A DNA stretch of 32,000 bases, taken from assembly GCA_963675515.1 (NCBI GenBank), contig OY776328.1, positions 900,001 through 932,000 of the forward strand, in the 5' to 3' direction. Below are positions 6,914 through 31,632 of the stretch, one piece after another (the first letter of the stretch is position 1; every line of letters starts with the position of its first letter). Both the position numbers and the translations under genes were made by a program. This DNA comes from Coprobacillaceae bacterium. GTDB lineage: Bacteria; Bacillota_I; Bacilli_A; Erysipelotrichales; Coprobacillaceae. Below the pieces are notes generated by a model. That model saw nothing but the letters and a program-made list of their open reading frames with translations. It was not told the origin of the DNA and ran no database searches.

Positions 6914-6939
6914 GCTTCTGCTTTTGATTAAACAGTATT

Positions 6940-11118: not shown

Positions 11119-11151
11119 TTAAATAAAAGGCAAATCACATACCTGAAAATC

Positions 11152-11187
11152 AAAACCCGTGTTCAACTTCGATTGAGCATGGGTTTT
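11152..11187 (+). terminator. Rho-independent terminator after the esterase gene
   Basis: AAAACCCGTGTTCAA pairs with TTGAGCATGGGTTTT (G-U pairs allowed), with TTTT at the 3' end of the stem. Confidence 0.55.
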
Positions 11188-11253
11188 AAATTTGTCTTTG
11201 CCACCAAGTGTGATATAATGCGATTATAAAGCAGTTATGAAAGAGGTGGCAGC

Positions 11254-12225: not shown

Positions 12226-12263
12226 ACAAAATGATCTGACTGCAAATCAGGTTAATAAATAAG

Positions 12264-12300
12264 ACAACCCAGGACATTACAAAATGGGTTGTTTTTTTTT
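12264..12300 (+). terminator. Rho-independent terminator (stem plus T9) abutting the rhaB RBS
   Basis: ACAACCC (12264-12270) pairs with GGGTTGT (12286-12292), followed by a run of nine T. It lies inside the 5' extension of the track ORF 12284, which argues for the rhaB start at 12323. Confidence 0.6.
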
Positions 12301-12322
12301 ATACTTATTACGAGGTGAGAAA

Positions 12323-14969: not shown

Positions 14970-14973
14970 CAGA

Positions 14974-15801: not shown

Positions 15802-15815
15802 GAGGGAGAAGCAAA

Positions 15816-16973
15816 ATGTCAAAAAGATTTATCTTAAATGAAACAAGCTACCATGGAAGCGGAGCAATCAAGGAGATTGTGAGTGAGGCAGTTTCCCGCC
15901 AATTCAAAAAAGCCCTTATCGTAACTGACAAGGACCTGGTGAAATTCCAGGTAGTCAAAAAAGTGACTGACCTTTTGGATGAAGCAGGACTTGCTTATGA
16001 GATTTTCGACGAGGTAATGGCTAATCCGACTATCGAACTGGTTACCAATGGAGTAGCAGCCTTCAAACAAAGCGGGGCGGACTACATGATCGCCATCGGT
16101 GGCGGATCACCTCAGGACGCAGCAAAAGCGATCGGAATCATCATCAACAATCCGGAATTCGCCGATGTGAGATCTTTGGAAGGTGTCGCACCGACCAAAA
16201 ACAAATGCGTTCCAATCATCGCCGTGGCAACTACAGCCGGAACCGCAGCTGAAACGACAATCAATTATGTCATCACTGACGTCCAAAACAAACGCAAATT
16301 CGTCTGCGTCGATGTCCATGACATCCCAGTAGTGGCGATTGTTGATCCGGACATGATGGCTTCGATGCCAAAAGGACTTACTGCAGCTACTGGTCTTGAT
16401 GCCTTGACTCATGCGATTGAAGGCTATACGACTCTAGGTGCGTGGGAACTGGCTGATACTCTTAACCTTAAAGCGATCGAACTGATTGCCAGAAGCTTGG
16501 AAGCTGCCTGCCAGAACGATTCTAAAGGTCGTGAGGACATGGCTTTGGGTCAATATATGACCGGAATGGCTTTCTCGAACGTGGGACTAGGTGTAGTCCA
16601 TGGTATGGCTCATCCGCTAAGCGCATTTTATGACACGCCTCATGGTATCGCCAATGCTGTGTTGCTTCCTTACGTGATGGAGTACAACAAAGACTTCACT
16701 GGAGCGAAATTCAAGGAAATCGCCAAAGCGATGGGTGTAAGTGGTGTCGAAGCCATGAGCGAAGCTGAATACAAGCAAGCCGCTATCGATGCGGTTGTCA
16801 CCCTGTCTAAAAACTGTGGAATTCCTCAGACCTTGAAGGAAATCGGTGTCAAGGAAGAAGACCTTGAAGCCTTGACTGCAGCGGCCATGGCCGATGTGTG
16901 TACCGGTGGGAATCCTCGTCCTTGCCAAAGCGATGAGATCCTGGCATTATACAATACAGCATATAGCGGATAA
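15816..16973 (+). CDS. fucO: Lactaldehyde reductase / L-1,2-propanediol oxidoreductase (iron-containing ADH)
   Basis: 385 aa with RBS AGGGAGAAG. Fe-ADH motifs: GGGSPQDAAKA and GVVHGMAHPLSAFYDTPHG. Its position after rhaD fits reduction of the L-lactaldehyde released by RhaD. Confidence 0.85.
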   Translation: MSKRFILNETSYHGSGAIKEIVSEAVSRQFKKALIVTDKDLVKFQVVKKVTDLLDEAGLAYEIFDEVMANPTIELVTNGVAAFKQSGADYMIAIGGGSPQDAAKAIGIIINNPEFADVRSLEGVAPTKNKCVPIIAVATTAGTAAETTINYVITDVQNKRKFVCVDVHDIPVVAIVDPDMMASMPKGLTAATGLDALTHAIEGYTTLGAWELADTLNLKAIELIARSLEAACQNDSKGREDMALGQYMTGMAFSNVGLGVVHGMAHPLSAFYDTPHGIANAVLLPYVMEYNKDFTGAKFKEIAKAMGVSGVEAMSEAEYKQAAIDAVVTLSKNCGIPQTLKEIGVKEEDLEALTAAAMADVCTGGNPRPCQSDEILALYNTAYSG

Positions 16974-17098
16974 TTTCTGCCAAAATTGTCCAAACCTTCC
17001 ATTATAATTTAATCATTCGCAACTAATCCATTATCAATTTTATAACACTAATCCAATAATATAAGACCGTGCCAAGTGCACGGTCTTTTCATTTGGGA
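16479..17098 (+). repeat. Left copy of the ~620-bp direct repeat (intact fucO 3' end, 3' UTR and terminator)
   Basis: Collinear with 26290-26906 from GAACTGATTG to CACGGTCTTT. My hand comparison gives roughly 45 mismatches or indels in about 620 nt. An extra 9-mer, TTAACCTTA, is shared at 16462 and 26262. Confidence 0.85.
17063..17089 (+). terminator. fucO rho-independent terminator
   Basis: AAGACCGTGC-CAAG-TGCACGGTCTTTT: a GC-rich stem followed by a T-run. Confidence 0.7.
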
Positions 17099-17229
17099 AT
17101 TATTCACTAAGTGTCAATCCATCGTACAAAATCCAGATAAGGTAAGCCTGTTTGTTTAAATAAGCATATATGATTATCAAGTGAGCCGGTCAATTGGCGG
17201 AATCCAATTATCTCCTTGTCAATAACTTG

Positions 17230-17274
17230 TTGATGTCAAGTATACTTGATATCAATAAGTTTCTTCGGTATGAT
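17230..17274 (+). promoter_or_regulatory. Sigma-A-type promoter overlapped by a 26-bp palindromic operator
   Basis: The palindrome TTGATGTCAAGTATACTTGATATCAA (17230-17255) has 24 of 26 positions symmetric. The -35 TTGATA (17246-17251), a 17-nt spacer, and the -10 TATGAT (17269-17274) lie upstream of the 99-aa ORF. Confidence 0.4.
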
Positions 17275-17313
17275 TAAAGAGGTTAATTAATTTACATTAG
17301 GAGGAATAATTGA

Positions 17314-17613
17314 ATGTTTAGTCACATGGATGAAATTGAATTATTACAATATCTAAAAGCTGTCAGAATAACATATTACTTCACGTTGACGTTAGAAGTA
17401 ATTGCTTTCATATATTCTATACCCTGTTTAAACGAGTACTCAAATTTGATATTGCTCTTTATTTTGTCGCAACGTCTTCTTGTTACCATTGTTGTTGAAT
17501 ATTACAAAGTAAAGGCAGGTAAGAAAATGAGTAAAATACGTTTTGTCGCTGGTTGCATATTGATGATTGCTATAATGTTATTAATAATAAAATTGTCCTT
17601 AGTTCCCGGGTAG
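17314..17613 (+). CDS. Hypothetical small membrane protein (about 3 TM segments)
   Basis: 99 aa with a very good RBS (AGGAGG, 8 nt from the ATG). It has hydrophobic segments and a lysine-rich loop. I recognise no family. Confidence 0.5.
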   Translation: MFSHMDEIELLQYLKAVRITYYFTLTLEVIAFIYSIPCLNEYSNLILLFILSQRLLVTIVVEYYKVKAGKKMSKIRFVAGCILMIAIMLLIIKLSLVPG

Positions 17614-17970
17614 CTTTTCTAACCACATCTCAGGTTTTCGGTATCCTGACCGGGCATTCAATACCAAATGCTTTGTAGCAATCATTCGCCTTCTTGAAAG
17701 CTTCTTGAGTGATTGGCTCATATTTTTATCCTCGCTATCATGTCTAAATGATACGCTAAGAGGATGAAAAAGTTAAGGAAAACAGCAATTTTAGAAGGCA
17801 CAAAACACCCTTCTATCGCAACTTTAATTTAGGATAAAACCGAGTAAAAAGTTTACCTAAGTCATGTGGTCATTCAAAAACAACATTCTAAATATTAATC
17901 TTTCAATCTAAATAGACAGAGAATCTGTGAATTAACACGTTACATTTCCATTTTAGAAATAATATTCCTA

Positions 17971-18064
17971 GTTGATGTTGTTGGTGCGAATATTATGATT
18001 TTCGTGCTCATCTGTGGATTTAAAAGAGCTTTTTTGCTTTAATTTTATTATACCAACTGAGAGG
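17971..18064 (+). promoter_or_regulatory. Paralogue of the agrD-like promoter with candidate LytTR direct repeats
   Basis: It aligns without gaps to 31633-31726, about 71 of 94 identical by hand count. Direct repeats TTGGTGC (17981-17987) and TTCGTGC (18001-18007) are 20 bp apart. The -10-like box is TATACC (18049-18054), followed by a GAGAGGGGAG RBS-like run. Confidence 0.45.
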
Positions 18065-18090
18065 GGAGAGTGGTGGAGTAATCAAAAACC

Positions 18091-18258
18091 ATGTTAATGT
18101 TTGAAGTATATTTACTTGTTTCGGCATTTGTTTCATTAATTCTTAAAATGTCACGAGTAATTCCTAGAAAAAATATACTTATTATAGATAAAATGGTATT
18201 GAAATGGCCTGTAGCATTCATTACAGTTGCCTTGAGGATATATATTCACAACAGGTGA
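18091..18258 (+). CDS. Hypothetical 55-aa two-helix hydrophobic peptide downstream of the LytTR-box paralogue
   Basis: ATG at 18091 to TGA at 18256-18258 (MLMFEVYLLVSAFVSLILKMSRVIPRKNILIIDKMVLKWPVAFITVALRIYIHNR). It lacks a well-spaced RBS and overlaps a minus-strand track ORF. The call is weak. Confidence 0.25.
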   Translation: MLMFEVYLLVSAFVSLILKMSRVIPRKNILIIDKMVLKWPVAFITVALRIYIHNR

Positions 18259-18687
18259 ATATATATATTTACTTGGATGGTTGATTATTTTGGACTTTGT
18301 GGACATTATTATGTGTTTCAAAAAATCAAATAAATAATAGTACACGCCAAATAGAGCGTTGGGCCATTCGTGTAGTACGATATCGATAAAATCATTGGCA
18401 CGTAAAAAGGAATACCGCAACTTCTATTTCTGTTTTGGTATTCCTTGTTTCAGTTCTTTGATTTCCTTGCAGGTTTACTGCCGCAAATGTGTTGGCAATA
18501 CTTCATGGTAAGGAAGTAGTTTCTTAATTCTTCTTTATTTTCAGGATCGTTATTCGGTAGTCGCGCTAGAATCCATGATTGAAGAATAAAACACGCACAC
18601 ACCAAACATATTAAAAAAATGAATCTGAAATTATCGAATTCATTTATAGTTGTTTACTAAAATTTAGAAATCAATAGATTTAAAGTG

Positions 18688-18716
18688 TCGACATGAGTTA
18701 ATTTGAGTATTATACT
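18688..18716 (+). promoter_or_regulatory. Sigma-A-type promoter upstream of the small membrane protein and bacteriocin genes
   Basis: TCGACA (18688-18693), a 17-nt spacer, then TATACT (18711-18716). Confidence 0.45.
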
Positions 18717-18812
18717 ACGTAAAGAGTAGCTAACTGAGGTTTAATTGATTATTAGCTGCCTATCTGCTGCATCTAAACGATAAATATTAAATATGTAATT
18801 TAAGAAAGTAAA

Positions 18813-19028
18813 ATGAGGATTCGAATTTTGAAAATTATTATTATGCATTTGCCATTCGTTCTATTTATAATTACTGCGATATTTTTAAGAATAATTAATG
18901 TACCTTTAGTTTATAAGGCTATATTAATTGTGGCGGTAATTATTTACGGTGTGTTTTTTACAAAAAAATCTAGGAGTTATTTTCAAGACATGCTCTCTGG
19001 CAGCAACGTAAATGAGAACAGGAAATAG
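18813..19028 (+). CDS. Small cationic two-TM membrane protein; candidate circular-bacteriocin immunity protein
   Basis: 71 aa with two hydrophobic helices and a basic tail (KKSRSYF...NENRK). It lies immediately upstream of the bacteriocin gene. Size and character match the small immunity proteins of circular bacteriocin clusters. The assignment rests on context only. Confidence 0.45.
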   Translation: MRIRILKIIIMHLPFVLFIITAIFLRIINVPLVYKAILIVAVIIYGVFFTKKSRSYFQDMLSGSNVNENRK

Positions 19029-19134
19029 ATTTATAGAGGGGTTAAAATTATTTCCAATTTGGCCGTTCTATTCTACATTATCATCAAGTTGATGAAGTTA
19101 TAGATATATATAATTAGAAAGGGGGGTGAATCAA

Positions 19135-19368
19135 ATGGGAGCATTGTTATTTTTAGTCGCTGGAACATTAGGGGTCAGCACAACTATTGCAACATCGGTT
19201 GTTAGCATTGTATTGACAGGGTCAACTATTATCACTATTATTTTGGCACTTACTACAATCCTTTCTGCTGGTGCAGATGCAATTTTGACAATGGGATGGA
19301 CAGCTTTCGTTACAACAATTAAGACTATTGCTCAAAAGCAAGGTATTAAATATGCTGTGGCCTGGTAA
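19135..19368 (+). CDS. Circular bacteriocin precursor, circularin A/uberolysin-like (77 aa: ~7-aa leader plus ~70-aa core)
   Basis: The ATG at 19135 lies 8 nt after the RBS AAAGGGGGG. The track start at 19126 is a GTG inside the RBS. The sequence is MGALLFL/VAGTLGVSTTIATSVVSIVLTGSTIITIILALTTILSAGADAILTMGWTAFVTTIKTIAQKQGIKYAVAW. It aligns along its whole length with my recollection of circularin A (MFL/VAGALGVQT...LMTIGWATFKATVQKLAKQSMARAIAY). The C-terminus resembles AS-48 (...AVIAW). DUF95 and ABC ATPase genes lie downstream. Confidence 0.8.
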   Translation: MGALLFLVAGTLGVSTTIATSVVSIVLTGSTIITIILALTTILSAGADAILTMGWTAFVTTIKTIAQKQGIKYAVAW

Positions 19369-19436
19369 CTATTCCAAAAAATCAATAGTCGAATGGCGTG
19401 TGCTACACGCTTTCGGCTATTTTAATTATAATAAAG

Positions 19437-21114
19437 GGTAGTGTCAAATTCGTTATGGAAAAACAGTGATTTTTTCATAATAGAGTTTCGTGTTCGTTTT
19501 GTCGGTAATACCTAAGCGCTTCTTCCATGAGGATGTTCCACTTGTTTGGCATGTTATGAGTTTTCTTCAAACAATCCAATTCAACTGGTGGCTTGTATCC
19601 CAGGGAGGTGTGATTTCTTAGGAAATTGAAATATGTTGTGAACAGACACATGAAATCATTTGCGCCATCCAATGAGTTGAAGCCATTTTTGATCGCGTAG
19701 GTTTCTCCAAATGTTCTATTCAAACGCTCTATTATTTGTTTGGCAGGGCGATGTTCTTTTGATACAGGATCATCATTCGTAAGTCCAATTACTTGAGTCA
19801 CTTTAAAAAATACTCTTTTGATTTGAAAATACTGTTGAGCGGCTTTATATATCGGATTTCCGTCAACAACGATCTCAAAGTCAGTCGGTAACTTTTTGAA
19901 TTTTCTCATGACTGAATAAAAGGCATTTATAGCCGCAAAGGTATCTCTTTTCATGAAAATTCGATACGAAGTTATTATTTTTTTCCTAACATCGCACATG
20001 AAAAATACATAGGCTTTTTTTCCTAAAACTTTGACGTATGTTTCGTCTCCACAATGATACGAGTTCAAATCGTGCTTGTAGTTATCCATCCACGGAAATA
20101 GGAGATGGCTGGCTGCCTGAGCGTAGTTAGCTATTGTTTGATGGGATATTTTGATATCGTGAATCTCGTATAAAACCAAAGCGGTTTTTCTAAGAGACAG
20201 GCCATAATTAACGTAATACGTCAACGCTAGGCCTAAAACATGCTTAGAATTGTGGATTCTGGAGAGATCAACTTTTGATGGTGCTATTTTCAGCTGGATG
20301 CTTTCAAGTTTTTCGATTGAAGCATCGAAGACGCGGGTTATGTAGTGAAGCGAGAATTTAGAAGGATTTACCTTGTATTTCTTTTTATCTTCTTTTGTTA
20401 GTTTCTTCAACTCACTCTTATAGTGAGAACATCTAGAGTTTTGACATTTATAGACATCAAAACCATCACGTGATTTGATCAACGTCAACTTGCGGCCGCA
20501 GTGAGGACACTTGCGGATCAATTGTTGCGAATAACTCTTATTAAGTGAGAAAGTCGTATCACAAACTTTGCACTTAACTTGGGATTTCTTGATTCCGTTG
20601 TTGAAAGTCAGGTATTCATGAGTGGCGCCGCAATGTGGGCAAACAGTATCTTCAGATGGATAGTCTTTGCCTTCATGTCTAAACACCGGTTTCAAAGGTC
20701 GTTTATGTTTGGATTCATACTCATCCCTGGCCTGTTGAAATGGGATGGGGATTAATTGCGGTTCAATAACAGGAAGCGGATGCATTTTGAAACGACGATA
20801 TGGTTCACTCTTACTTGAATCCGTACCATCACTGGGAAGATGCTTTAGCAGGAAACACTCAAATTTGTACAAAAATCTACGAATGATATTTAAAAAATTG
20901 ATTATTAATGATATAATTTTGACCATGGTAACAGTCCTCCTTATTGTGGTTTAGACACTTACAATTATGAGGCTGTTACCTTTTTTTGTAAACAAAATGG
21001 TCAAATTATAGGGTGAAATCCGGGGGAATTTACCTAAATATATAAAAAACCAAGGTAGAATGCGGTTTTCCAGTTAATTATGGTTGTAAATAACTAACTG
21101 GTTTTGACACTACC
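19437..21114 (-). mobile_element. IS6-family-like insertion sequence (long form with Zn-finger N-terminal extension), 1678 bp
   Basis: Perfect 12-bp terminal inverted repeats GGTAGTGTCAAA sit at 19437-19448 and, as complement, at 21103-21114. An 8-bp target duplication TAATAAAG lies at 19429-19436 and 21115-21122. There is a single transposase ORF. Confidence 0.8.
19475..20926 (-). CDS. IS6-family-like DDE transposase with N-terminal zinc-ribbon region
   Basis: 483 aa with RBS AAGGAGG. CxxC pairs: CPHCG...CKVCD and CPHCG...C. The DDE core resembles IS26/IS257-type transposases (GDETYVKVLGKKAYVFFMCD, VVDGNPIY, QIIERLNRTF). Confidence 0.85.
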   Translation of the reverse strand: MVKIISLIINFLNIIRRFLYKFECFLLKHLPSDGTDSSKSEPYRRFKMHPLPVIEPQLIPIPFQQARDEYESKHKRPLKPVFRHEGKDYPSEDTVCPHCGATHEYLTFNNGIKKSQVKCKVCDTTFSLNKSYSQQLIRKCPHCGRKLTLIKSRDGFDVYKCQNSRCSHYKSELKKLTKEDKKKYKVNPSKFSLHYITRVFDASIEKLESIQLKIAPSKVDLSRIHNSKHVLGLALTYYVNYGLSLRKTALVLYEIHDIKISHQTIANYAQAASHLLFPWMDNYKHDLNSYHCGDETYVKVLGKKAYVFFMCDVRKKIITSYRIFMKRDTFAAINAFYSVMRKFKKLPTDFEIVVDGNPIYKAAQQYFQIKRVFFKVTQVIGLTNDDPVSKEHRPAKQIIERLNRTFGETYAIKNGFNSLDGANDFMCLFTTYFNFLRNHTSLGYKPPVELDCLKKTHNMPNKWNILMEEALRYYRQNEHETLL

Positions 21115-21137
21115 TAATAAAGGTAGGTACATTTATT

Positions 21138-22259
21138 ATGAAAATTACTAATTATGTTAAAATGATATGTTTATTTTATAAAAACATATCACTTGAGAAA
21201 ATATCATTTATAGCAAGGAAAATGAAAAGTGATAATCCATTTAGAATGCATTTAATTTGTGAATCATTGAAACTGTTTAGTTCAATTTTGATGATTATCT
21301 TGTTATATAATAATGTATATAGTTATAACACAAATCTATTTGTTTCCATTTTATTGTTAATTTACCTTGTACAAAATTTGTTGATGCTTGTGGGTCCCTG
21401 GAAGATAATAAGAAAGAGATTCAAATATAGTTACTTACGGATGACTGCTTCCGGAGATTGTATGTATCTCCGAAAAGTTATTGTGCTTAACTTTTTTGTT
21501 GAATATTTATTATCACTTCCAATGAATTTGCCTATTTTGATTGGACTTATAGTCACAGCCAATTTGTTTGCGGTGCTGTTAGCCATAAATATTAGTGCGT
21601 TATCATTTCTTTTCTACATAATCAGACATTCTCAAAAGATGTTGAGAAAAGGACCAATGGCTACAATAATGTTTTTTGTTTCACGTATGTGCACATTTTC
21701 AATAGGTTACTTATTTGCATTTATATTATCAAGATTGGTCTTAATATCTAGATCTGGAATAAAAGAATTTGGTTTGTCCGTAATGTACGTTTCATGGGTG
21801 GATAGTATAATTAACGATTCTTTGTTTTCCATAACAAAATATTTTCGTAATATATTATTAAACGTCGATTACTATCTAGTAAACGACTATCGAATTATTA
21901 GTTTTCTATTAATATTGATATTATTTTTCGTATTTATTTCGTTAATGATTTTGAAACGTATTTCTAAAGAAATCATACAAATAACATACAAATTACCAAA
22001 TTGCTATATTAACTCATTAAGTAAATTTGAAAATAAACATGAAATTGATAATCCGTTTTTGTTCAAAGATCTGTGCATTTTCATTGATAAAACAAGGAAA
22101 CTTGAGTACAGTCCAATGGAGTTCCTATTTACGAATGAGCTGTTCTTTTTTATAGGGATAAATATAGTATTTTTACCACTAATCAATAATTATTTTATCT
22201 TTGCGTTTTTATTTGTTTTTGAACTTTTTTTCTTAATTGACCACCAAATACATCCTTAA
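21138..22259 (+). pseudogene. N-terminal part of the IS-disrupted large polytopic membrane protein (CirB/As-48B-like maturation protein)
   Basis: Multi-TM ORF. Its last 9 codons and the stop at 22257-22259 are read from the left end of an IS. Native sequence ends at the TSD at 22224-22231. Confidence 0.7.
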
Positions 22260-22289
22260 ATCTAATAATGATTTACACACCGTTTTTCC

Positions 22290-23433
22290 GGCTATGTTAG
22301 CCCAAAGCAATGCTTTCATAGATGAAGCCTGTTCCAATATAATTTTCTCGCCTAAAATCACAATGGCATTGATAAATATCCACAAAATAATCATGGACGT
22401 CTCTAGCTCTTGTTTCAATCATGTATGCTATGTACGCCAGATATTCATTAAGGTATTTAGAAGATATCCCATTGTGTTTTTTCATATACTTTTCAATTTG
22501 AGAATGCACGTAATTGACGTGATTTATGTGGTAGATTCCTCGCTTTGCCTTGCTTTTTGCTGGAAACGCATAATGGTCGATTTTCAGACTCTCACTTAAT
22601 CTTCGATATACGAATAATCCATCCGTACAAAGCGTTGTTGCTTTTTGAAGGTGTTTCAGATATACAGCGGTTGTCGTTTCGTTATCAAGCGTTGTCGATC
22701 CGATCTTAGCGACCTTGAGTAATATATGGCCGTTCCTGTCAACCGCGCTTGCTATTTGTACGGCATCGGTTATATTTTGATCTTTCTTGTCTCTACGGTT
22801 ACCTTTTCGTCCTCTTTTATAGGGCTTCCTGGGTAATGGTTTTGCCGCCTGTTTACTGTGATTCCCGGAATAACTGATGTTTACGCTCATTTCATCTAAT
22901 TCCACAATCCCGCTAAGCTCAACGTTTTCCATCCTGTGAGCTAGCGCGTTCAATATTTTATGGCGCATGAAAAAACTGCATTTTAACGACACTCCTGCAT
23001 ATTTGGCACAGTCCCTCAAATCTTCGTCATGGCTCATTATTATCAGATACTTAAGCCAGGTTATATAAGAAAGTTTGGTATTCTCCAAAATTGTACCAAC
23101 ATACGGAGTAAAAGTTTTACCGCAATCAATGCATCTAAAACGTTGTGTTTTGTTTTTGTAGTGGCCATCTCGTTTAATATGATGGTGACCGCAACGAGGG
23201 CACGAAATTGAATCGTTGTGTTTGGCTTCTAATGCATCCACAAGGATCTTGGTGTAATCATTTAGAAGTTGACGGTCCTGAATGAAAACAATTAGGGCGT
23301 TTAAATCATCGCTGTTTAAAGTATCCAGTTCATTCTTAATTTTTTCTAATTCCATGGTTATCCCACCTCTTCTCTATTATACACCTAATTCTACAGGAAA
23401 AGTCGATAAACATCTTTATGGGCTAACATAGCC
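22290..23433 (-). mobile_element. IS1595-family-like element A (1144 bp), nested 50 bp inside the left end of element B
   Basis: 14-bp perfect inverted repeats are GGCTATGTTAGCCC (22290-22303) and GGGCTAACATAGCC (23420-23433). The 8-bp target duplication GTTTTTCC lies at 22282-22289 and 23434-23441. Confidence 0.8.
22297..23355 (-). CDS. IS1595-family transposase (zinc ribbon plus ISXO2-like DDE domain)
   Basis: 352 aa with RBS AGAGGTGGG. Zinc ribbon: CPRCGHHHIKRDG...FRCIDCGKTF. It has an ELDEMSV acidic motif. The stop codon lies in the terminal repeat. Confidence 0.85.
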   Translation of the reverse strand: MELEKIKNELDTLNSDDLNALIVFIQDRQLLNDYTKILVDALEAKHNDSISCPRCGHHHIKRDGHYKNKTQRFRCIDCGKTFTPYVGTILENTKLSYITWLKYLIIMSHDEDLRDCAKYAGVSLKCSFFMRHKILNALAHRMENVELSGIVELDEMSVNISYSGNHSKQAAKPLPRKPYKRGRKGNRRDKKDQNITDAVQIASAVDRNGHILLKVAKIGSTTLDNETTTAVYLKHLQKATTLCTDGLFVYRRLSESLKIDHYAFPAKSKAKRGIYHINHVNYVHSQIEKYMKKHNGISSKYLNEYLAYIAYMIETRARDVHDYFVDIYQCHCDFRRENYIGTGFIYESIALG

Positions 23434-23511
23434 GTTTTTCCGCCTTCTAAATTCTTGGTTTTTAGTGATTAGACTTCATCACTTTGGTATGATATTACCG
23501 AGGTGATATCA

Positions 23512-24483
23512 ATGGCAATAAAACTAAAACCGAAGAAAGATTCTTTAATAACTCTTACTAGAAAATATGCTAATGACAATGATGAATGTGTGAAGTTCTT
23601 CTTCACTATCAAGTGGCCTGAAGGGTTCTACTGTGAAAAGTGCGGTTGTACGCATTACTACTTCATTGAAAGTAGAAAAGCTTATCAATGCAAGGAATGC
23701 AAACATCAGCACTATCTGCTAGCAGGTACCATATTCCAGGACACCAAGCTCGAACTTTACAAACTGATCTTAGGCATGTATATTTTCTTTACCTCCAATA
23801 AAGGTGTTTCAGCAATAGAACTCGCAAGTGAACTCGACGTCAATTACAAAACAGCCTTACTTCTTGCCAGAAAATGTCGAATTTTGATGGCTCAAAGCTG
23901 TAGTGAAAAGATGCTCGATAGCTTGTTTTATGAAGCTGACGTCGCATATATTGGATCCAAGAGCAAAGAGAAGAATCGTCAAGGTTGTGCTACAGAGCAA
24001 CAGCCTTTTTTGGTCGTACTTTCGACGGATGCAGAAAATCATTACCCAAAATACATCAAACTTCACCCTATTCCAACCGACAATCAAATCCAGGTAAAAA
24101 ATGTCATCTCGAAGAGCATCAAACTATCAAAGGATCGAAAACTGAATACCGATGGCAAAACTACATTTAACAAAATTGAGGATGAGATTGAGTTGTGTAA
24201 GGAAAAGATCATTTACAAAGAGGATGATCATCGCTTGTATTGGATTAACACTTTGATTGGTGATATCAAAAACAATATCACTGGAATATATCATGGCGTA
24301 GCAAAGCGGGATCTGCCTTTATTCCTAAATGAGCAGGAGTGGCGCTTCAACCACCGTTATACAGGTGCTTATTTCATGGATAAAATAAGAAAATATCTGC
24401 TACTTTCATCGCCGATGCCAAAAAGAAAAATCGTAACGGTTCTTAACTTAGCAGAATCATATTTTTCAAGTACATGTATCTGA
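23512..24483 (+). CDS. IS1595-family transposase of element B
   Basis: The likely start is the ATG at 23512, 6 nt after GAGGTG. The track start at 23503 is the GTG inside that RBS. N-terminal motif: FFFTIKWPEGFYCEKCGCTHYY...YQCKECKHQH...AGTIFQDTKL. It has an EADVAYIG motif. The stop lies inside the right inverted repeat. Confidence 0.8.
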   Translation: MAIKLKPKKDSLITLTRKYANDNDECVKFFFTIKWPEGFYCEKCGCTHYYFIESRKAYQCKECKHQHYLLAGTIFQDTKLELYKLILGMYIFFTSNKGVSAIELASELDVNYKTALLLARKCRILMAQSCSEKMLDSLFYEADVAYIGSKSKEKNRQGCATEQQPFLVVLSTDAENHYPKYIKLHPIPTDNQIQVKNVISKSIKLSKDRKLNTDGKTTFNKIEDEIELCKEKIIYKEDDHRLYWINTLIGDIKNNITGIYHGVAKRDLPLFLNEQEWRFNHRYTGAYFMDKIRKYLLLSSPMPKRKIVTVLNLAESYFSSTCI

Positions 24484-24503
24484 TGGTCAATTAAGCTTTT
24501 TTT

Positions 24504-25107
24504 TATAATTGTAGGAAATTTAAGAATTGTAACATATAGATTTGATGAAGTGTTTAGATTTAGAAGCGATATCGATAAATGGAAAATAATTTACTTGTCG
24601 GGCACTAGAGGAACATATCAGGTCTTGTTTTCAAAATATTATTTGTTGAAGCACCTTGCCAAAATCCCTTGTTTATTTACTTGTTTTGTGTTATTTGTAA
24701 TGTTTTCTGGCTATATGTCAATATATGCTACCATTCTTATTCTAGATATTGCGATCGTCATTGCACTCTTTAGCGATATAGTTAAATGGATACTGAGAAC
24801 AGATTACGATTTTTATTGTATAATTATTAAAAACAAGTACGCAGTTAATGAGGTCTCGATTGAGGATTATTTGGGTTATAATCTGGTATCCAATGCAAAT
24901 AAAACGGTACATAGGTTGTTTTTGTTTGTTACATTTTTTATTTTAATATTATGTTCGTTTTTGAAGTTAATTTCAGGATGGCAATGGGTTATATTTTATG
25001 TTACATATTTAATTGTTTTCGTGATCGATATAAAAGCAAATTCTATGTACTATCCTACGGATAAAATAATTAAAATTGGAAGGAGAGAATTGAATGAGCA
25101 GAATTAA
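24504..25107 (+). pseudogene. C-terminal part of the IS-disrupted CirB/As-48B-like membrane protein
   Basis: The frame is open from the right target duplication. The track ORF 24550-25107 merely starts at an internal GTG. Joining 22231 to 24504 keeps the frame (see findings). Confidence 0.7.
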
Positions 25108-25621
25108 TAGAATAATATCCGGGCATGTCAAATACTTATGTATTTCTATATCTGTTTATATTTTAGGGATAATTTTTGGAATGATTATTTCAGCTGATAC
25201 GAAATTGACTATCAATCCAACTAGTATGCAATTTGTTGAAACATTTGTCCACAATGAAATAATCGGGTTAGGTTTGGTTGTTTTTGGAATTGTAACGTTT
25301 GGATTTTTCAATACTATTTTCCTGGCATACAATGGGTTTTCATTGGGTTTGATAATAATTGGCGTATACAATCAATATGGTATAAGTCCATTGATTTCTG
25401 GTGTTGCCCCACATGCTCTAATTGAAACTTTTGCCATAACAATGTCATGTACGCTAGGATATGAGTCGTTGCGCCTTGTAAAGATGGTAAAAAATAATTT
25501 AGATTCGGATATAAAGGGAAAAATTTATATAAGTGATTTTATAATATTACTAATATCCACTAGTTTGCTATATGTTGTCGGGGCATTCATAGAATCATCA
25601 TTCTCAAATGTAATAATATAA
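25094..25621 (+). CDS. DUF95/SpoIIM-family membrane protein (As-48C/CirC-like)
   Basis: 175 aa with about 4 TM segments and RBS GGAGAG. It overlaps the upstream gene by 14 nt. The conserved PH-x-x-x-E motif (APHALIETFAIT) is typical of SpoIIM/DUF95 proteins found in circular bacteriocin clusters. Confidence 0.7.
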   Translation: MSRINRIISGHVKYLCISISVYILGIIFGMIISADTKLTINPTSMQFVETFVHNEIIGLGLVVFGIVTFGFFNTIFLAYNGFSLGLIIIGVYNQYGISPLISGVAPHALIETFAITMSCTLGYESLRLVKMVKNNLDSDIKGKIYISDFIILLISTSLLYVVGAFIESSFSNVII

Positions 25622-25634
25622 AGGGGGCAAGAAA

Positions 25635-26264
25635 ATGAATGATGTAGTACTTGATATAAAAGAGTTATCATATAGTTATGACGGGAAAAAATTTATCTTA
25701 AAAAATATAAACTTTTTCATTAGAGAAGGAGAGGTGGTAAAACTTAGTGGACCTAACGGGGTTGGCAAATCGACATTTCTTAATATAGTTTCAGGTCTAA
25801 TTGATGATTCCAATTTAGAATATACTGCGGAATTTCAAAATGAGGAGATAATATTTGAAAATATGCGTTCTAGAATATCTTTTGTACTGGATACACCAGA
25901 ATTATTCGATCAACTTACTGGATCTGAAAACATTAAAATGTACAGCTTACTGTTTGAGTGTGATGATGCATATTTTGATAGAGTTCTGGACTGGTGCAAT
26001 AAATATCGTATAATAGATTTTTTAAGCCGTCCGGTAGAAGAGTATTCCTTGGGTACTCGACATAAATTGTTCTTAGCGATACTCATATCGAGAAAAGTTG
26101 ATCTTATTCTTTTAGATGAGCCTTTCAATGCTTTGGATGATTCTAGTAGAAAATACCTTGTTGGGCATATTAATTCTTGTAGAGACTCTTCGTTCATCAT
26201 TGTTTCACATCTTAATCAACCTGGTCTGAAATTGGATAGGGATTTTGAAATGAAATTATATTAA
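25635..26264 (+). CDS. ABC transporter ATP-binding protein (As-48D/CirD-like)
   Basis: 209 aa with RBS AAGGGGG. Walker A: GPNGVGKST. Degenerate signature: YSLGTRHKL. Walker B: LILLDEPFNALD. No cognate permease gene is adjacent. Confidence 0.85.
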   Translation: MNDVVLDIKELSYSYDGKKFILKNINFFIREGEVVKLSGPNGVGKSTFLNIVSGLIDDSNLEYTAEFQNEEIIFENMRSRISFVLDTPELFDQLTGSENIKMYSLLFECDDAYFDRVLDWCNKYRIIDFLSRPVEEYSLGTRHKLFLAILISRKVDLILLDEPFNALDDSSRKYLVGHINSCRDSSFIIVSHLNQPGLKLDRDFEMKLY

Positions 26265-26289
26265 CCTTAGTTCCTAGTCGGCTTTTCTT

Positions 26290-26783
26290 GAACTGATTGT
26301 CAGAAGCTTGGAAGCGGCCTGCCAGAACGATCCTAAGGGTCATGAAGACATGGCTTTGGGTCAATACATGACCAGAATGGCTTTCTCGAACGTGGTACTT
26401 GGTGTGGTCCATGGGGTGGCTCATCCACTAAGCGCATTTATGACACGCCTCATGGCATCGCCGATGCCGTGTTGATTCCTTACGTGATGGAGTACAACAA
26501 AGACTTCACCGGAGCAAAATTCAAGGAAATCGCCAAAGCGATGGGTGTAAGTGGTGTCGAAGCCATGAGCGAAGCTGAGTACAAGCAAGCCGCTATCGAT
26601 GCGGTTGTCACCCTTTCTAAAAACTGTGGAATTCCTTAGACCTTGAAGGAAATCGGTGTCAAGGAAGAAGACCTTGAAGCCTTGATTGAAGCTGCCATGG
26701 CCGATGTGTGCACCGGTGGGAATCCTCGTCCTTGCCAAGGCGACGAGATCCTGGCATTATACAAAACAGCATATAACGGATAA
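26290..26783 (+). pseudogene. Decayed duplicate of the fucO 3' end (last ~165 codons)
   Basis: Collinear with 16479-16973. It has a 1-nt deletion in the T-run at ~26437-26439 (GCATTTATGAC versus GCATTTTATGAC). It has an in-frame TAG at 26637-26639 (CAG in the intact copy). Several substitutions are non-synonymous. There is no 5' part and no start codon. Confidence 0.85.
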
Positions 26784-26906
26784 TTTCTGCCAAAATTGTT
26801 CGAACCTTCCAATATAATTTAATCATTTGCAACTAATCCATTATCTATTTTATAACACTAATCCTATAATATAAGACCGTGCCCTTGGCACGGTCTTTAA
26901 TTTGAA
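26290..26906 (+). repeat. Right copy of the ~620-bp direct repeat (fucO remnant, 3' UTR and terminator copy)
   Basis: See the left copy at 16479-17098. The terminator copy AAGACCGTGCCCTTGGCACGGTCTTT lies at 26873-26898. Confidence 0.85.
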
Positions 26907-27024: not shown

Positions 27025-27591
27025 TCAGGATTGTTCCGGTTTACTTGGTAATAATACCGAATTCAATATTATTGCCGATATCGATAAAAAAGATCCGGTA
27101 GCGGCGTAGCTAGTATATCCGCTTTTTACGGATGATAAAATCAAGATCGTTATAGTATTCAGCGAATACAAAATAAGTTTATTTCGAAGATCATTTCTCT
27201 CAAAAGTCCTTTTCCAAGGATTAATATTTATCAGCACAAATATTGAAAGAAATAGAAAGTACCCCAGGACATAGATCATAATTGAAGGCATAATGGAACT
27301 TAATAACATCCCAATTGACCAAATAATAATACCTAATAAGTAGCATCCAAAAGGTGTTTTGGAATGATACCCGGCATTGTTGGTCCTGAAGACAAGAAAA
27401 CACGATAGCATTATCAGGGATTCCAAAAATCTGCCGCTAAGTATCGAAATGATTAAATAACTAATGGAATTTAACGCAAATAATATTATAGCGGATAAAG
27501 CATATTCTATTTGCTGCATTTTGAATGCGTCATCAATGCAATTTTTTTGGCAAATTTTACGTGAAAGACGTGAAACAAATACGTGCAGCAT
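27025..27591 (-). CDS. agrB: AgrB-family AIP-processing membrane peptidase
   Basis: 188-aa polytopic protein. The motif FRTNNAGYHSKTPFGCY places a His and a Cys 7 residues apart, as in S. aureus AgrB (RRHAHGAHAPSSFWCY). Its ATG lies 1 nt after the kinase stop, with the GAGGTG RBS inside the kinase 3' end. Confidence 0.8.
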   Translation of the reverse strand: MLHVFVSRLSRKICQKNCIDDAFKMQQIEYALSAIILFALNSISYLIISILSGRFLESLIMLSCFLVFRTNNAGYHSKTPFGCYLLGIIIWSIGMLLSSIMPSIMIYVLGYFLFLSIFVLININPWKRTFERNDLRNKLILYSLNTITILILSSVKSGYTSYAATGSFLSISAIILNSVLLPSKPEQS

Positions 27592-27592
27592 T

Positions 27593-28861
27593 TTACACCT
27601 CAGTATTATAAATATAAATATTAATGTCTTGATGGGTTACCGCCGGGATTAGGATGGTAACTTTAAATGTTGCCTCCGTATAACTGACATCAATCATGCC
27701 ATCGTATTTTTTTACTATTCTTCTGATGTTTTTCAAACCGTAACCGTGATTAGCGCCACCCTTTCGTGAAAGGATTTTAGAATCACTTAAAATGATTTTT
27801 CCGTCAAATGTGTTCTCACAAATTATTCTAATCATTTTGTTTGGAAGTAGAGCTATTGATATACGAACCCTTTTATTCTCTGTGGTTTGAGCAGCTTCTA
27901 AAGCATTGGAAGTAATATTTCCAAATAATGAACACAAATCAAAATTATCGATGTGAGAAATGTCCGGAACTTCTAACTCGATATCGAGTGAAACGCCCAA
28001 TAAATTACTTTTACTGATAAAGTCACTTATTGTAGAGTCAAGGTAGATGTTTCCTGTATTCACAACGATAATTTTGTTGTCCATTTCCAATCCGATATTA
28101 TTGATATATTCTTCCAATTGAGTATATGACTTATTCGAGACAAGATGGCCAAGCGTGTTGAGGTGGAATTTTACGTCATGCTTCCATGATTTAAGGTGGT
28201 TGTATGATTTGATTGTTTTGTCATAAAGTTCGGTTCTGAGTTCATTCTCTTTAAGCAATAGGTCGATACTGTATTTTCTCGTTAAGTTTGTAATTAGTAT
28301 TCTTGTTTGAACAAATGAGATTAAATTGACTGCAAAAAGGGAGACAGTAATGACCAACAAATACAGATTATCTGAATTAAACTCTAAATAATGTCTTAAT
28401 ATAAATACCATGGATAAAACTGAAGCCAGTGGCACTACCATATATAAATAAACGTATCTTTCATTATTATCAAGATTGTTTGAATAAGAACCTCTGTTCA
28501 TTTGAAGAGAGATAAGAAACATCAGTATAAATATTATTGTTCTTGTAATAATCATCAGCAGTAATCTGATGAACTCTTCTCCCATCAGCTGCTGGACATC
28601 AATGCTTGAAAACGATGTTACCAGTGATATGGTAATCAATTCGACCAGGTTAAATATCAAAAAAGCAACAACTGGAACTAAAAATTTAAATAGAAAGCGC
28701 CCGCTGTAAAAAATCAGTGAATATAAGATATAAATTAGAAATACCAGCATTACTGCGCTTGAATTGTATTTTTGAATGGTAAACACAGTTAAAATTGCAG
28801 ATATAAAAATGAAAATTGCTGCGTTGATATAACGCATTGGAAGTTCTTTATTTACTAGCAT
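27593..28861 (-). CDS. agrC: AgrC-like (HPK10-type) membrane sensor histidine kinase
   Basis: 422 aa with about 6 N-terminal TM helices. H-box: WKHDVKFHLNTL. N-box: GNITSNALEAA. G-box: NHGYGLKNI. The RBS at 28861 is poor, so the start is uncertain (the alternative is the MRYIN Met). Confidence 0.8.
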   Translation of the reverse strand: MLVNKELPMRYINAAIFIFISAILTVFTIQKYNSSAVMLVFLIYILYSLIFYSGRFLFKFLVPVVAFLIFNLVELITISLVTSFSSIDVQQLMGEEFIRLLLMIITRTIIFILMFLISLQMNRGSYSNNLDNNERYVYLYMVVPLASVLSMVFILRHYLEFNSDNLYLLVITVSLFAVNLISFVQTRILITNLTRKYSIDLLLKENELRTELYDKTIKSYNHLKSWKHDVKFHLNTLGHLVSNKSYTQLEEYINNIGLEMDNKIIVVNTGNIYLDSTISDFISKSNLLGVSLDIELEVPDISHIDNFDLCSLFGNITSNALEAAQTTENKRVRISIALLPNKMIRIICENTFDGKIILSDSKILSRKGGANHGYGLKNIRRIVKKYDGMIDVSYTEATFKVTILIPAVTHQDINIYIYNTEV

Positions 28862-28978: not shown

Positions 28979-29455
28979 ATGACCAAAACTTATACGACAG
29001 AAGAAAAAATCAAGATCATCAGTGAGGTTGAACCACCACTTAACAAGACGGTTGTTCAGATTGCTGAAGAAACCGGCATCAAGACGACTACACTATATTC
29101 TTGGAAAAGAAGATACCTCAAAAATCATTCAGTTTCTAAAATCAAAGAACGCTACAACAAGGAACAACGTTTCCATTTCATCGCTGAATCCGCTCCCCTC
29201 AGTGAACATGAGCTCGGTGAATATTGCCGCAAAAAAGGGATTCATCCTGATGAGTTGGTTAAGTGGAAGAAGGAATTCCTAAGCCCTGAAACCAAGTCCG
29301 ATTCTCTAAAAGATGACCTGCAAGCCGAACGGCAAAAGCGCAAAGAGCTGGAAAAACAATTGCGCCGCAAGGAAAAGGCATTAGCCGAGGCAGCTGCATT
29401 ACTGGTTCTTGAAAAAAAGCTCCAGGCAATTTGGGACGACAACGAGGAAGATTAA
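28979..29455 (+). CDS. IS3-family transposase OrfA (HTH plus leucine-zipper region)
   Basis: 158 aa with RBS AAGGAG. HTH: VVQIAEETGIKTTTLYSWKRRY. It has a coiled-coil C-terminus. The A7G slippery site lies near the 3' end. Confidence 0.85.
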   Translation: MTKTYTTEEKIKIISEVEPPLNKTVVQIAEETGIKTTTLYSWKRRYLKNHSVSKIKERYNKEQRFHFIAESAPLSEHELGEYCRKKGIHPDELVKWKKEFLSPETKSDSLKDDLQAERQKRKELEKQLRRKEKALAEAAALLVLEKKLQAIWDDNEED

Positions 29456-30507
29456 CGACTCTCAAATTGCGCAAAGAAATCGTTACGTTAATCAAAGAAG
29501 CGAACGCCAATGGTGCCCGCTTGATCCCGGCATGCAAGGTGGCAGGGATTTCGAAACGGACGTATGAAAGATGGACTCAAGAAGACAATATTTCCACTGA
29601 TAGGCGTAAAGAACCACGGCTAAATCCTCCAAAGAATAAGCTCAGCAATGAAGAACGCGAAGCTATAATGAGAATAGTTAACAGTCCTGATTATAGGCAA
29701 TTGACACCGGCTGAGATTGTTCCGTTACTGGCTGACAAAGGTATCTATATTGCTTCAGAATCAACCATCTACCGTCTATTAAGAGAGTTGAAACAATTGA
29801 AACATCGCGGCCGTACAGCCCCGAAGCACCACAGACAAGCCACCACCCATATTGCAATCAAACCGAACCAAGTTTGGAGTTGGGACATCACTTGGTTGCA
29901 CCGCAAGGATATCCGAGGAGTTTATTACAAGCTATACATGATAATGGACATCTTCAGCCGCAAAATTGTCGGGTACGAAGTATGGGAGACGGAAAACGCT
30001 GAATATTCCGCAATCCTGATGCAACGCACACTTTTAAGCGAACGAATCAATGGCGAACCGCTGGTCTTGCACTCCGATAACGGTGGTCCGATGAAGGCAG
30101 CTACATTTCTGGGGATGCTCGAGAATCTTGGTGTGCAAAGCTCATTTTCTAGACCGCGGGTAAGCAACGATAATCCATATTCTGAATCGTTGTTTAAGAC
30201 ATTTAAATATATGCCAAAATACCCCACAAGCGGTTTTGAATCACTCACACACGCTAGAAGCTGGGTCAATGAATTTGTACAATGGTACAACGAAATTCAC
30301 TTACACAGCGGAATCAAATACGTGACACCCGCCAGTCGCCATCGAGGGGAAGATGCTGCGATACTGCAAAAAAGGAAAGAAGTTTATGCTGAAGCTAAAA
30401 TGAAAAACCCTGAACGATGGAGTGGATCAGCCAGAGACTGGTCCTGGATTGAAGCAGTTGCCCTAAATCCGACAAAAGAAAGTGAATTATTGATCAACGA
30501 AGTTTAA
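29431..30507 (+). CDS. IS3-family transposase OrfB (rve DDE integrase core), expressed as an OrfAB fusion by -1 frameshifting
   Basis: It lies in frame -1 relative to orfA. DDE core: WSWDITW, LHSDNGGPM, NPYSESLFKTFK. Confidence 0.85.
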   Translation: MGRQRGRLTTLKLRKEIVTLIKEANANGARLIPACKVAGISKRTYERWTQEDNISTDRRKEPRLNPPKNKLSNEEREAIMRIVNSPDYRQLTPAEIVPLLADKGIYIASESTIYRLLRELKQLKHRGRTAPKHHRQATTHIAIKPNQVWSWDITWLHRKDIRGVYYKLYMIMDIFSRKIVGYEVWETENAEYSAILMQRTLLSERINGEPLVLHSDNGGPMKAATFLGMLENLGVQSSFSRPRVSNDNPYSESLFKTFKYMPKYPTSGFESLTHARSWVNEFVQWYNEIHLHSGIKYVTPASRHRGEDAAILQKRKEVYAEAKMKNPERWSGSARDWSWIEAVALNPTKESELLINEV

Positions 30508-30610: not shown

Positions 30611-31318
30611 CTATCCTCCAAAAAATTTCAAAAACAGATTTTGTACATCTTTCATTTTTGATCTCCCTACCGGAATTGAGTCTCCGTTAGAAATTTGAAC
30701 ATACTGACTTTTAAACGAAGCCACATAGTTCAAATTTACAATGTATGACCTATGTATTCTAAACATATCATGGTCAATCAACAAATCTTCAATTTTTGAA
30801 ATTGGAATATTGATTTGCTTTTCTTCTTCTATCATATGAAATATGCAATTATGTTTATCTGACTCAACATACATAATGGATTTTGTATCTATCGTATAGT
30901 AACCGTTTGATGCGTCTAAACGAATTAATCTGTCGATGTTTTTTTGAAGAGAATTAGCAATCTGATCTAATGTTTTATTTAATCTAGTCTGGTTGACGGG
31001 CTTTACAATATAATCCAGCGCAGACACCTCATATCCATTGATTGCAAACTGGCTGTGTGAAGTAATAAAACATATTATGATATTCTTATTGTTTTTCCTG
31101 AGCTCTTTAGCAAATTCAATACCGGAAATTTCAGGAATTTCTATATCGAGTAGTGCCACATCGCAGTCCATTGCTTCTCCAGGAATCATGTATGATACTT
31201 TATTGGTAACGGTAAATTCTACAATGTTATTTGTGTTTTTTGCCCAATTGTCGATATATCCAATTAAAATGTCCCGGTCTATTTTAGAATCTTCAGCGAT
31301 GAAAAAACTAATGTTCAT
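30611..31318 (-). CDS. agrA: LytTR-family response regulator (AgrA-like)
   Basis: Start moved to MNISFFIAEDSK with RBS GAGAGGGG. The track start at 31447 adds 43 implausible residues. The receiver domain has DVALLDIEIP, and the C-terminal LytTR domain has IMYVESDKHNCIF...FRIHRSYIVNL. Confidence 0.85.
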   Translation of the reverse strand: MNISFFIAEDSKIDRDILIGYIDNWAKNTNNIVEFTVTNKVSYMIPGEAMDCDVALLDIEIPEISGIEFAKELRKNNKNIIICFITSHSQFAINGYEVSALDYIVKPVNQTRLNKTLDQIANSLQKNIDRLIRLDASNGYYTIDTKSIMYVESDKHNCIFHMIEEEKQINIPISKIEDLLIDHDMFRIHRSYIVNLNYVASFKSQYVQISNGDSIPVGRSKMKDVQNLFLKFFGG

Positions 31319-31632
31319 GTAATTATCCCCTCTCTCATTTTGTTTCAATTCTACATGATTGTAACATATATTTTGCAGTTTGTATAATTGTTCCGAACAT
31401 AAATCCGTCAATATAAAGGATACAGGAGAGTATTTTTGTATAAACATAATACATTACTTAATTAATCATCAAATACAGGTGAGCACGGTATTGGATTATT
31501 GTCGATTTTGAAAAATCACCAAATGTCGCGCATTTTGGATGTAGTAATATTTCTTCGTTACTGACTATGAACTCCAAGATGTATCTGTTGGCTAATTAAG
31601 AAACATTATTTTTTTGTTCAATTATTTTCTTT

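Follow-up and report, generated by a model that had tools for sequence, protein, structure and literature searches.

Circular bacteriocins attract interest as antimicrobials that are stable and resist proteases, and to our knowledge only about 20 of them have been confirmed experimentally. Circularin A is processed at the junction MFL|VAGALGV... (PMC10905743), and its mutagenesis has established that a Phe at position -2 of the leader is important for efficient biosynthesis, that positions +1 and +2 must hold small hydrophobic residues, and that the C-terminal residue must be aromatic (PMC10028692). A SpoIIM/DUF95 gene is present in all circular bacteriocin clusters, the immunity proteins of these systems are small, cationic and hydrophobic, and knock-outs of biosynthetic genes in the garvicin ML system yield only precursor and linear forms (PMC6131525). 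In subgroup i, a basic patch is formed by core residues 52-65 (PMC7132975). The locus described here lies in 32,000 nucleotides of a Coprobacillaceae bacterium genome (assembly GCA_963675515.1, contig OY776328.1, positions 900,001 to 932,000 of the forward strand), a stretch that is called the window below. Within it, an open reading frame (ORF) at 19135..19368 on the plus strand very probably encodes the precursor of a subgroup-i circular bacteriocin from the thermocin-458-like branch of the circularin A/uberolysin family, and it lies in a cluster that has been broken by insertion sequences (IS) and is probably non-producing.

The ORF extends from an ATG at 19135 to a TAA stop codon at 19366-19368, comprises 77 codons plus stop, and is translated as MGALLFLVAGTLGVSTTIATSVVSIVLTGSTIITIILALTTILSAGADAILTMGWTAFVTTIKTIAQKQGIKYAVAW. 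Its signals and segments are:

19120..19129, plus strand, ribosome-binding site AGGGGGGTGA, read from the sequence, with a 5-nt spacer to the ATG
19135..19155, plus strand, leader MGALLFL (7 residues), placed by alignment to mature peptides
19156..19368, plus strand, core V8 to W77 (70 residues) and stop codon, placed by family hidden Markov models (HMMs), alignments and the AlphaFold2 model

In the program-made list of ORFs this frame starts at a GTG at 19126, which lies inside the Shine-Dalgarno sequence, and the ATG at 19135 is therefore the preferred start. Coordinates, start and Shine-Dalgarno sequence bear out the 77-residue ORF with a strong ribosome-binding site that had been read in a preliminary description of this DNA, made from the letters without database searches.

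That description had also proposed a head-to-tail cyclised precursor of the circularin A type, a proposal that is now supported by family HMMs, by alignment to mature peptides, by the predicted fold and by the gene neighbourhood. The precursor clears the cutoffs of two curated HMMs, matching TIGR03651 (the NCBIfam model “circular bacteriocin, circularin A/uberolysin family”) with 71.6 bits against a cutoff of 30.7 (E = 5e-20) over profile positions 1-73 of 73, and the Pfam model PF09221 (Bacteriocin_IId) with 64 bits against a cutoff of 23.6 (E = 1.5e-17) over positions 1-67 of 67; both scores are about two- to threefold over the cutoffs. A sequence search of the PDB returned enterocin NKR-5-3B (2MP8, E = 6e-6) and AS-48 (1E68/4RGD), with end-to-end alignments.

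Global alignments of the core were made against 26 sequences, consisting of 22 literature references and the cores of four metagenomic homologues, with reference sequences taken from Vezina et al. 2020 (PMC7132975, supplement 1) and from Table 1 of PMC10905743. Identity is 84% to the metagenomic homologue P0002, 65.7% (46/70, without gaps) to thermocin 458 of Geobacillus stearothermophilus DSM 458, 55% to a Caldicellulosiruptor sequence, 38.6% (27/70) to circularin A, 37% to NKR-5-3B, 30% to carnocyclin A and 26% to AS-48, and a forced alignment with the subgroup-ii peptide butyrivibriocin AR10 gives 22% with an alignment score of 3. The value for circularin A agrees with an earlier estimate of roughly 40%. 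Judged by global identity, the closest described relative is thermocin 458 and not circularin A, and the suggestion that the peptide may be a new family member holds in the sense that it is an uncharacterised member of a known family, 34% divergent from the nearest described circular bacteriocin.

The exact peptide is recorded once in NCBI/ENA genomes, where it is unannotated by name. A profile search retrieved 51 relatives, many of them labelled “uberolysin/carnocyclin family circular bacteriocin”, and when 1.84 billion cluster representatives were searched exhaustively, 16 matches at E<=1e-3 were obtained, the best being 65% identical. No relative was found when the GTDB species-representative genomes were scanned for the peptide, and the species representative evidently lacks the island in which the gene resides. 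In the literature, a full-text search found the peptide and the motifs of its clade in no paper, the supplements of Xin et al. 2020 contain no match to it, and thermocin 458 is the only match in Vezina et al. 2020 (PMC7132975). Nor was a description of any circular bacteriocin from Erysipelotrichaceae found in the literature searched.

The comparison with thermocin 458 is the closest that can be made with a described peptide. Both have a 70-residue core, an identical N-terminus (VAGTLGVS), common LTGST, DAIL, GW and AW motifs, a short leader (MSLLAL in thermocin 458, MGALLFL here) and a low net charge (+1 and +2, respectively). They differ in one third of residues, chiefly in helices 4-5, with the present peptide lacking Glu and Arg and containing more Thr and Ile; they also differ in host, a thermophilic bacillus as opposed to a gut-type member of the Erysipelotrichaceae, and in the disruption of the present cluster by ISs. 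Circularin A shares with the peptide its family model, the FL|VAG junction, the central (M/I)GW block, an aromatic C-terminus, and a gene order in which the precursor gene is followed by genes for a large membrane protein, a DUF95 protein and an ATPase. Its core, however, is off by one residue in length, its leader has 3 rather than 7 residues and its net charge is +4 rather than +2, and the present cluster has no cirE-like gene after the ATPase gene, with a small cationic ORF upstream instead. NKR-5-3B and AS-48 align end to end with the core and share C-termini of the type ...A-A-W or ...I-A-W, but NKR-5-3B is 6 residues shorter at 37% identity, and AS-48, at 26% identity, has 10 Lys/Arg compared with 3 here and is less hydrophobic. 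The metagenomic homologues P0002 and P0007-P0009 (loci L007-L011) share a core that is 84% identical and a 7-residue leader of the form M-x-x-LLFL.

The boundary between leader and core can be placed by reference to peptides with experimentally known mature N-termini. Residue 3 of the mature NKR-5-3B and AS-48 chains aligns opposite residue 10 of the query, and the mature N-terminus is therefore predicted to be Val8, in agreement with the leader MGALLFL and the 70-residue core that had been proposed. Geobacillus homologues have an equivalent junction, MSLLAL|VAGTLGV..., and every residue named by the circularin A mutagenesis as governing maturation is present here, in the arrangement F(-2)L(-1)|V1 A2 ... 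A69 W70. The reference sequences also contain the FL|VAG junction and MGW/IGW block noted earlier, as well as the features of AS-48 (...AVIAW) and carnocyclin A (...AKQGIKK...) that the C-terminus had been said to resemble. The cyclic product has a predicted mass of 7091.35 Da (average) or 7086.995 Da (monoisotopic).

The only charged residues of the core are 3 Lys and 1 Asp, Arg, Glu and His being absent, and Thr plus Ile make up 35.7% of it, the highest value among the 26 reference sequences; residue counts thus confirm the Thr/Ile-rich, weakly charged composition noted earlier. As a cyclic molecule without free termini it has a net charge of +2, an isoelectric point (pI) of ~10.4 and a grand average of hydropathy (GRAVY) of 1.18. 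Its lysines K55, K61 and K65 all fall in the stretch that forms the subgroup-i basic patch. A position between the two recognised physicochemical subgroups, as had been suggested, is not supported, because pI, length and homology, including the matches to both family models, all point to subgroup i, and because low charge is common to the relatives (+1 in thermocin 458 and in the Caldicellulosiruptor peptide, -1 to +3 in the metagenomic relatives). Subgroup ii (the gassericin A/butyrivibriocin AR10 type, with ~58 residues and an acidic-to-neutral pI) is ruled out by the 70-residue length, the pI of ~10.4 and the 22% identity to butyrivibriocin AR10. By these measures the peptide is an ordinary low-charge member of subgroup i.

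The predicted structure is likewise that of a circular bacteriocin. AlphaFold2, run on the 70-residue core with an alignment of 41 sequences, gave a model with a predicted local distance difference test (pLDDT) score of 87.3 and a predicted template modelling (pTM) score of 0.75, in which five helices span residues 9-20, 25-33, 40-46, 48-62 and 64-69. A bundle of four or five helices of the saposin type had been anticipated, and in a Foldseek search of the PDB the top four matches are solved circular bacteriocins (2mp8, 4rgd, 2kjf and 1e68), with nothing else ranking near them. NKR-5-3B (2mp8) superposes with template modelling (TM) scores of 0.70/0.75 and a root-mean-square deviation (rmsd) of 2.4 Å, and AS-48 G13K/L40K (4rgd) with a TM score of 0.72 over 70/70 columns and an rmsd of 2.7 Å; carnocyclin A and AS-48 (1E68) are the other two. 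The Foldseek E-values are weak, as is expected at 70 residues. In AS-48 the termini are covalently joined, and the gap-free superposition of the model on AS-48 implies neighbouring N and C termini in the present peptide as well. In addition, a circular permutant was designed in which W70 is linked to V1 and core residue 36 comes first; folded as a single sequence it gave a pLDDT of 81.8, with a continuous helix (residues 29-40) predicted over the W70-V1 junction at a block pLDDT of ~93. This model agrees with ring closure in a supportive capacity only.

The precursor protein is also under purifying selection. Compared with the three closest homologous genes, the precursor gene has 75% nucleotide and 82-84% protein identity, and the ratio of nonsynonymous to synonymous substitution rates (dN/dS) is 0.07-0.08, from which purifying selection follows, with dS being saturated at ~1.6. 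Together with the HMM matches, this shows that the ORF did not arise as a random reading frame.

Around the precursor gene is a cluster whose composition is that of a circular bacteriocin locus. The features that accompany the precursor gene, some of which were identified by comparison with the intact relative L008, are:

18813..19028, plus strand, small hydrophobic cationic protein of 71 residues with two predicted transmembrane segments, 10 Lys/Arg and only 2 Asp/Glu, a candidate for the immunity protein
19384..19421, plus strand, hairpin and U-rich tract just 3′ of the precursor stop codon, found by RNA folding
19437..21114, minus strand, IS6-like element of 1678 bp in the spacer that separates the precursor and B genes, with a 483-residue transposase at 19475..20926
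21138..22231, plus strand, 5′ part (codons 1 to ~364) of the interrupted large membrane-protein gene (B gene), a CirB-like maturation/export component
22232..24495, plus strand, outer IS1595-family element inside the B gene, with a transposase at 23503..24483
22290..23433, inner IS1595-family element nested in the outer one, with a transposase at 22297..23355 on the minus strand
24504..25107, plus strand, 3′ part of the large membrane-protein gene, by homology to the L008 protein
25094..25621, plus strand, intact SpoIIM/DUF95 membrane protein of 175 residues (PF01944, 67.3 bits)
25635..26264, plus strand, intact ATP-binding protein of an ATP-binding cassette (ABC) transporter, 209 residues (PF00005, 82.8 bits)

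In the intact relatives L007-L011 the order is a 61-residue ORF, the precursor, a 571-residue membrane protein, a 175-residue SpoIIM/DUF95 protein and a 209-residue ABC ATPase, after which come LytTR regulators, a histidine kinase, YidC and a further ABC transporter. Homologues of the first five of these genes occur in the window in identical order, with no counterpart of the later ones. Compared with the 571-residue L008 protein, the ORF at 21138..22259 has 35% identity over residues 4-371 and that at 24550..25107 has 43% over residues 379-566, while the SpoIIM protein is 55% identical to its L008 homologue over the full length and the ABC ATPase 50%. All four of the gene types expected of a circular bacteriocin locus are thus present (SpoIIM/DUF95, large membrane protein, ABC ATPase and small immunity candidate), and the cluster is complete in kind but not functional, the large membrane-protein gene being interrupted by ISs. 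In contrast to the present locus, the clusters of L007-L011 are intact and their site adjoins the atp operon, and their maturation proteins are only 35-55% identical to those encoded here.

The 71-residue ORF is 38% identical (E = 9e-15) to the 61-residue ORF that takes this place ahead of the L008 precursor, and by analogy with the small, cationic, hydrophobic immunity proteins of the group its product is likely an immunity factor. A 71-residue ORF upstream of the precursor in another related locus, L005, was considered as a relative and has no detectable similarity to it. A 31-residue ORF after the ATPase gene in L009-L011 was considered as a CirE-like immunity peptide; it is hydrophilic and looks spurious.

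The hairpin at 19384-19421 has a folding energy of -20.5 kcal/mol (z -6.3), with none of 200 shuffled sequences as good, and a hairpin of other sequence occupies the equivalent position in L008. It is probably a terminator or attenuator that divides the structural gene from the maturation genes, although a strict consensus terminator scan of 18500-21300 found no terminator and did not report it.

Divergence is unevenly distributed along these clusters: between the window (19135-26264) and L008 (10001-13156) the precursors are 82-84% identical and the maturation proteins 35-55%, with dN at 0.12 for the precursor and 0.35-0.44 for SpoIIM and the ATPase and dS similar and saturated. A different architecture is seen in L005 (7122-10724), in which a precursor (P0003) that is 67% identical and has a charge of -1 is followed by a single 681-residue SpoIIM-domain protein, in which the large membrane protein and DUF95 appear to be fused; this locus adjoins genes with a weak TrbC match, suggesting a conjugative element. 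A PADLOC search of the unannotated membrane proteins gave no match, and neither did an Rfam scan of the whole window.

The boundaries of the insertions are exact. The IS6-like element begins 15 nt past the hairpin, ends in perfect 12-nt terminal inverted repeats (GGTAGTGTCAAA) and is flanked by an 8-bp target duplication, TAATAAAG, at 19429-19436 and 21115-21122. Its transposase matches NF033587 (IS6) and PF13610. At 483 residues this transposase is long, with an N-terminal region containing several zinc-ribbon motifs, and its score of 82.8 bits compares with an NCBIfam IS6 cutoff of 125, such that the element may belong to a divergent IS6-related group. The outer IS1595 element has 22-nt inverted repeats and the target duplication CTTTTTTT, the inner one has 27-nt inverted repeats and the target duplication GTTTTTCC, and both transposases clear NF033547. 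An 8-bp target duplication is retained at each of the three insertions. In-silico removal of the two nested elements, together with one of the duplicated target copies, joins 21138-22231 to 24504-25107 in an uninterrupted 565-residue ORF that is collinear with the 571-residue L008 protein. With target duplications intact and the ORF perfectly restored, the insertions look recent and simple, and the damage is exactly reversible. The earlier hint that the cluster would need repaired genes was correct, and the IS6-like and nested IS1595 boundaries now define what such a repair would involve.

Given that SpoIIM-containing clusters are the rule for circular bacteriocins, that knock-outs in garvicin ML leave only precursor and linear forms, and that the B gene is broken, we infer that the strain is a non-producer, most likely unable to make the mature cyclic peptide. 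It could nevertheless be that the mature peptide is still made, either by the split halves of the B protein working as separate polypeptides or by machinery encoded elsewhere in the genome. Neither the precursor and 71-residue ORFs nor the SpoIIM and ATPase genes are damaged, an in-frame GTG start is available in the 3′ B-gene fragment, and the hairpin precedes the IS6-like insertion, which would leave a short precursor transcript unaffected. Yet the break in the B gene falls near codon 364 of 565, in the hydrophobic run FVFELFF, and an opposite-strand IS of 1.7 kb separates the maturation genes from the precursor transcription unit; moreover, there is no second cluster within the 32-kb window, and the garvicin ML knock-outs provide a precedent against maturation by an incomplete set of genes (PMC6131525). 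Continued production seems quite improbable.

A broken cluster with an intact precursor could also be an “immunity-only” cheater island, in which the precursor is kept for some function of the linear or unprocessed peptide, or the immunity gene is kept, for example, for protection from the bacteriocin of neighbours. The survival of the precursor and the upstream 71-residue ORF beside broken production genes fits this idea, and recently inactivated clusters have been discussed by Vezina et al. (PMC7132975), but the insertions are very recent, with intact duplications and a restorable ORF, so that retention of the precursor needs no selective explanation, and no evidence for activity of a linear form is seen here; such an island is hardly to be expected. 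Finally, that the ORF is an ordinary small hydrophobic membrane protein or a decaying pseudogene remnant whose family resemblance is compositional might be argued from its GRAVY of 1.18, from its low complexity (36% Thr+Ile), which can inflate profile scores, and from the degeneration already under way in the cluster, but this is largely refuted, and extremely improbable, in view of the end-to-end matches with specific motifs (VAGTLGV, LTGST, GW and a C-terminal A-x-A-W), the dN/dS of 0.07, the canonical position in a syntenic cluster with the hallmark SpoIIM gene, and fold matches that are specific to circular bacteriocins.

Several points weigh against the preferred reading, that of a circular bacteriocin gene in a silenced cluster. 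A promoter scan found no convincing sigma-70 promoter in the 106 nt directly upstream of the precursor ORF, which may be transcribed from a promoter-like site at 18688-18716, before the 71-residue ORF. The net charge of +2 is low for an active subgroup-i peptide, and the peptide and its 84%-identical relatives are known from sequence alone. The proximity of the termini is deduced from the superposition on AS-48 and from the permutant, and the latter was folded without an alignment, its last helix being of low confidence and its far end poorly defined. A second maturation system may exist elsewhere in the 2.88-Mb genome, beyond the 32-kb window.

By analogy with the family, an intact version of this cluster might operate as follows. 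The 77-residue precursor would shed its 7-residue leader MGALLFL, and a peptide bond between Val8 and Trp77 would close the 70-residue core within a helix that thereby becomes continuous. The product would be a compact, very hydrophobic ring of ~7091 Da with a five-helix, saposin-like fold, whose lysine patch (core residues K55, K61 and K65) could dock on anionic membranes before the ring permeabilises them. Maturation and export would require the large membrane protein, the SpoIIM/DUF95 protein and the ABC ATPase, and the upstream 71-residue cationic membrane protein would provide immunity. In the strain represented by the window, the IS6-like element has parted the precursor from the maturation genes, and the nested IS1595 pair has split the B gene.

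The family, fold, leader logic and cluster architecture of this locus are unsurprising, and existing knowledge of biosynthesis and mode of action in the family is unchanged by it. Its modest interest lies in the host lineage, in the low charge combined with Thr/Ile richness, by which the peptide extends the low-charge end of subgroup i, and in the reversible IS damage. The three insertions with their intact target duplications constitute a clean, dated example of cluster silencing and an exact recipe for its repair with a view to heterologous production. Conceivably, though we consider it rather unlikely, the peptide and its 84%-identical metagenomic relatives represent a gut-associated, nearly uncharged and Thr/Ile-rich part of the thermocin-458-like branch, in which membrane targeting is less electrostatic than in the AS-48 type. 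If that were true, targeting in that branch might proceed, for example, through a specific receptor or by purely hydrophobic insertion, and because the IS damage can be reversed exactly, the window would then be a ready template for resurrecting the peptide.

The cluster is part of an island that is bracketed by two copies of a direct repeat:

16479..17088, plus strand, left copy of the 610-bp direct repeat, comprising the 3′ end of an Fe-alcohol dehydrogenase (fucO-like) gene and its terminator
26292..26898, plus strand, right copy of the 610-bp direct repeat, gene fragment only

The two copies are 93% identical and enclose the bacteriocin island at ~17090-26290 (~9.2 kb). The related genomes L092-L094 are collinear with window positions 1828-17090 at 88% nucleotide identity and then diverge completely. 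Because repeats flank it and synteny ends at 17090, the island is taken to be an accessory, horizontally acquired segment. The copies resemble one another more than either resembles the corresponding region of the related genomes (84-85%), and a comparison of these sequences suggests Campbell-type or recombinational acquisition from a close relative. Neighbouring proteins fall in 90%-identity clusters whose named members come from metagenome-assembled genomes labelled “Erysipelotrichaceae bacterium”, and the host was assigned to this family on that basis. Exact-sequence contig matching with the precursor and the ATPase gave no hit, and loci retrieved through RhaA, at best 74% identical and from Lachnospiraceae, said nothing about the host. 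At the same site, L092 (15770-20972), and also L093 and L094, contain two 72-residue ORFs, a 208-residue ORF, a radical-SAM/SPASM protein, a nitroreductase and a DUF5131 protein, which may represent a different locus for a ribosomally synthesised and post-translationally modified peptide at a shared variable site. The left part of the island (window 17100-18800) encodes a predicted 99-residue membrane protein (17314..17613) without family match, followed by an AT-rich stretch of ~1.2 kb without a convincing ORF.

Downstream of the island, the minus strand carries an agr-like quorum-sensing locus (window 27025-31447) with AgrB at 27025..27591, a GHKL histidine kinase at 27593..28861 and a LytTR response regulator at 30611..31447, the last two being separated by an inserted IS3-family element (orfA 28979..29455, orfB 29431..30507). 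The LytTR/kinase genes that immediately follow the clusters of the intact relatives are only 25% identical to this regulator. Upstream of the island is a rhamnoside/rhamnose utilisation locus (window 5597-16973) that encodes a phosphotransferase system EIIC component, a GH78 alpha-L-rhamnosidase, an esterase of the polyhydroxybutyrate-depolymerase family, an AraC regulator, rhamnulokinase, RhaA, a class II aldolase and the Fe-alcohol dehydrogenase. Among species-representative genomes, the best match to RhaA is a Lachnospiraceae protein that is 74% identical.

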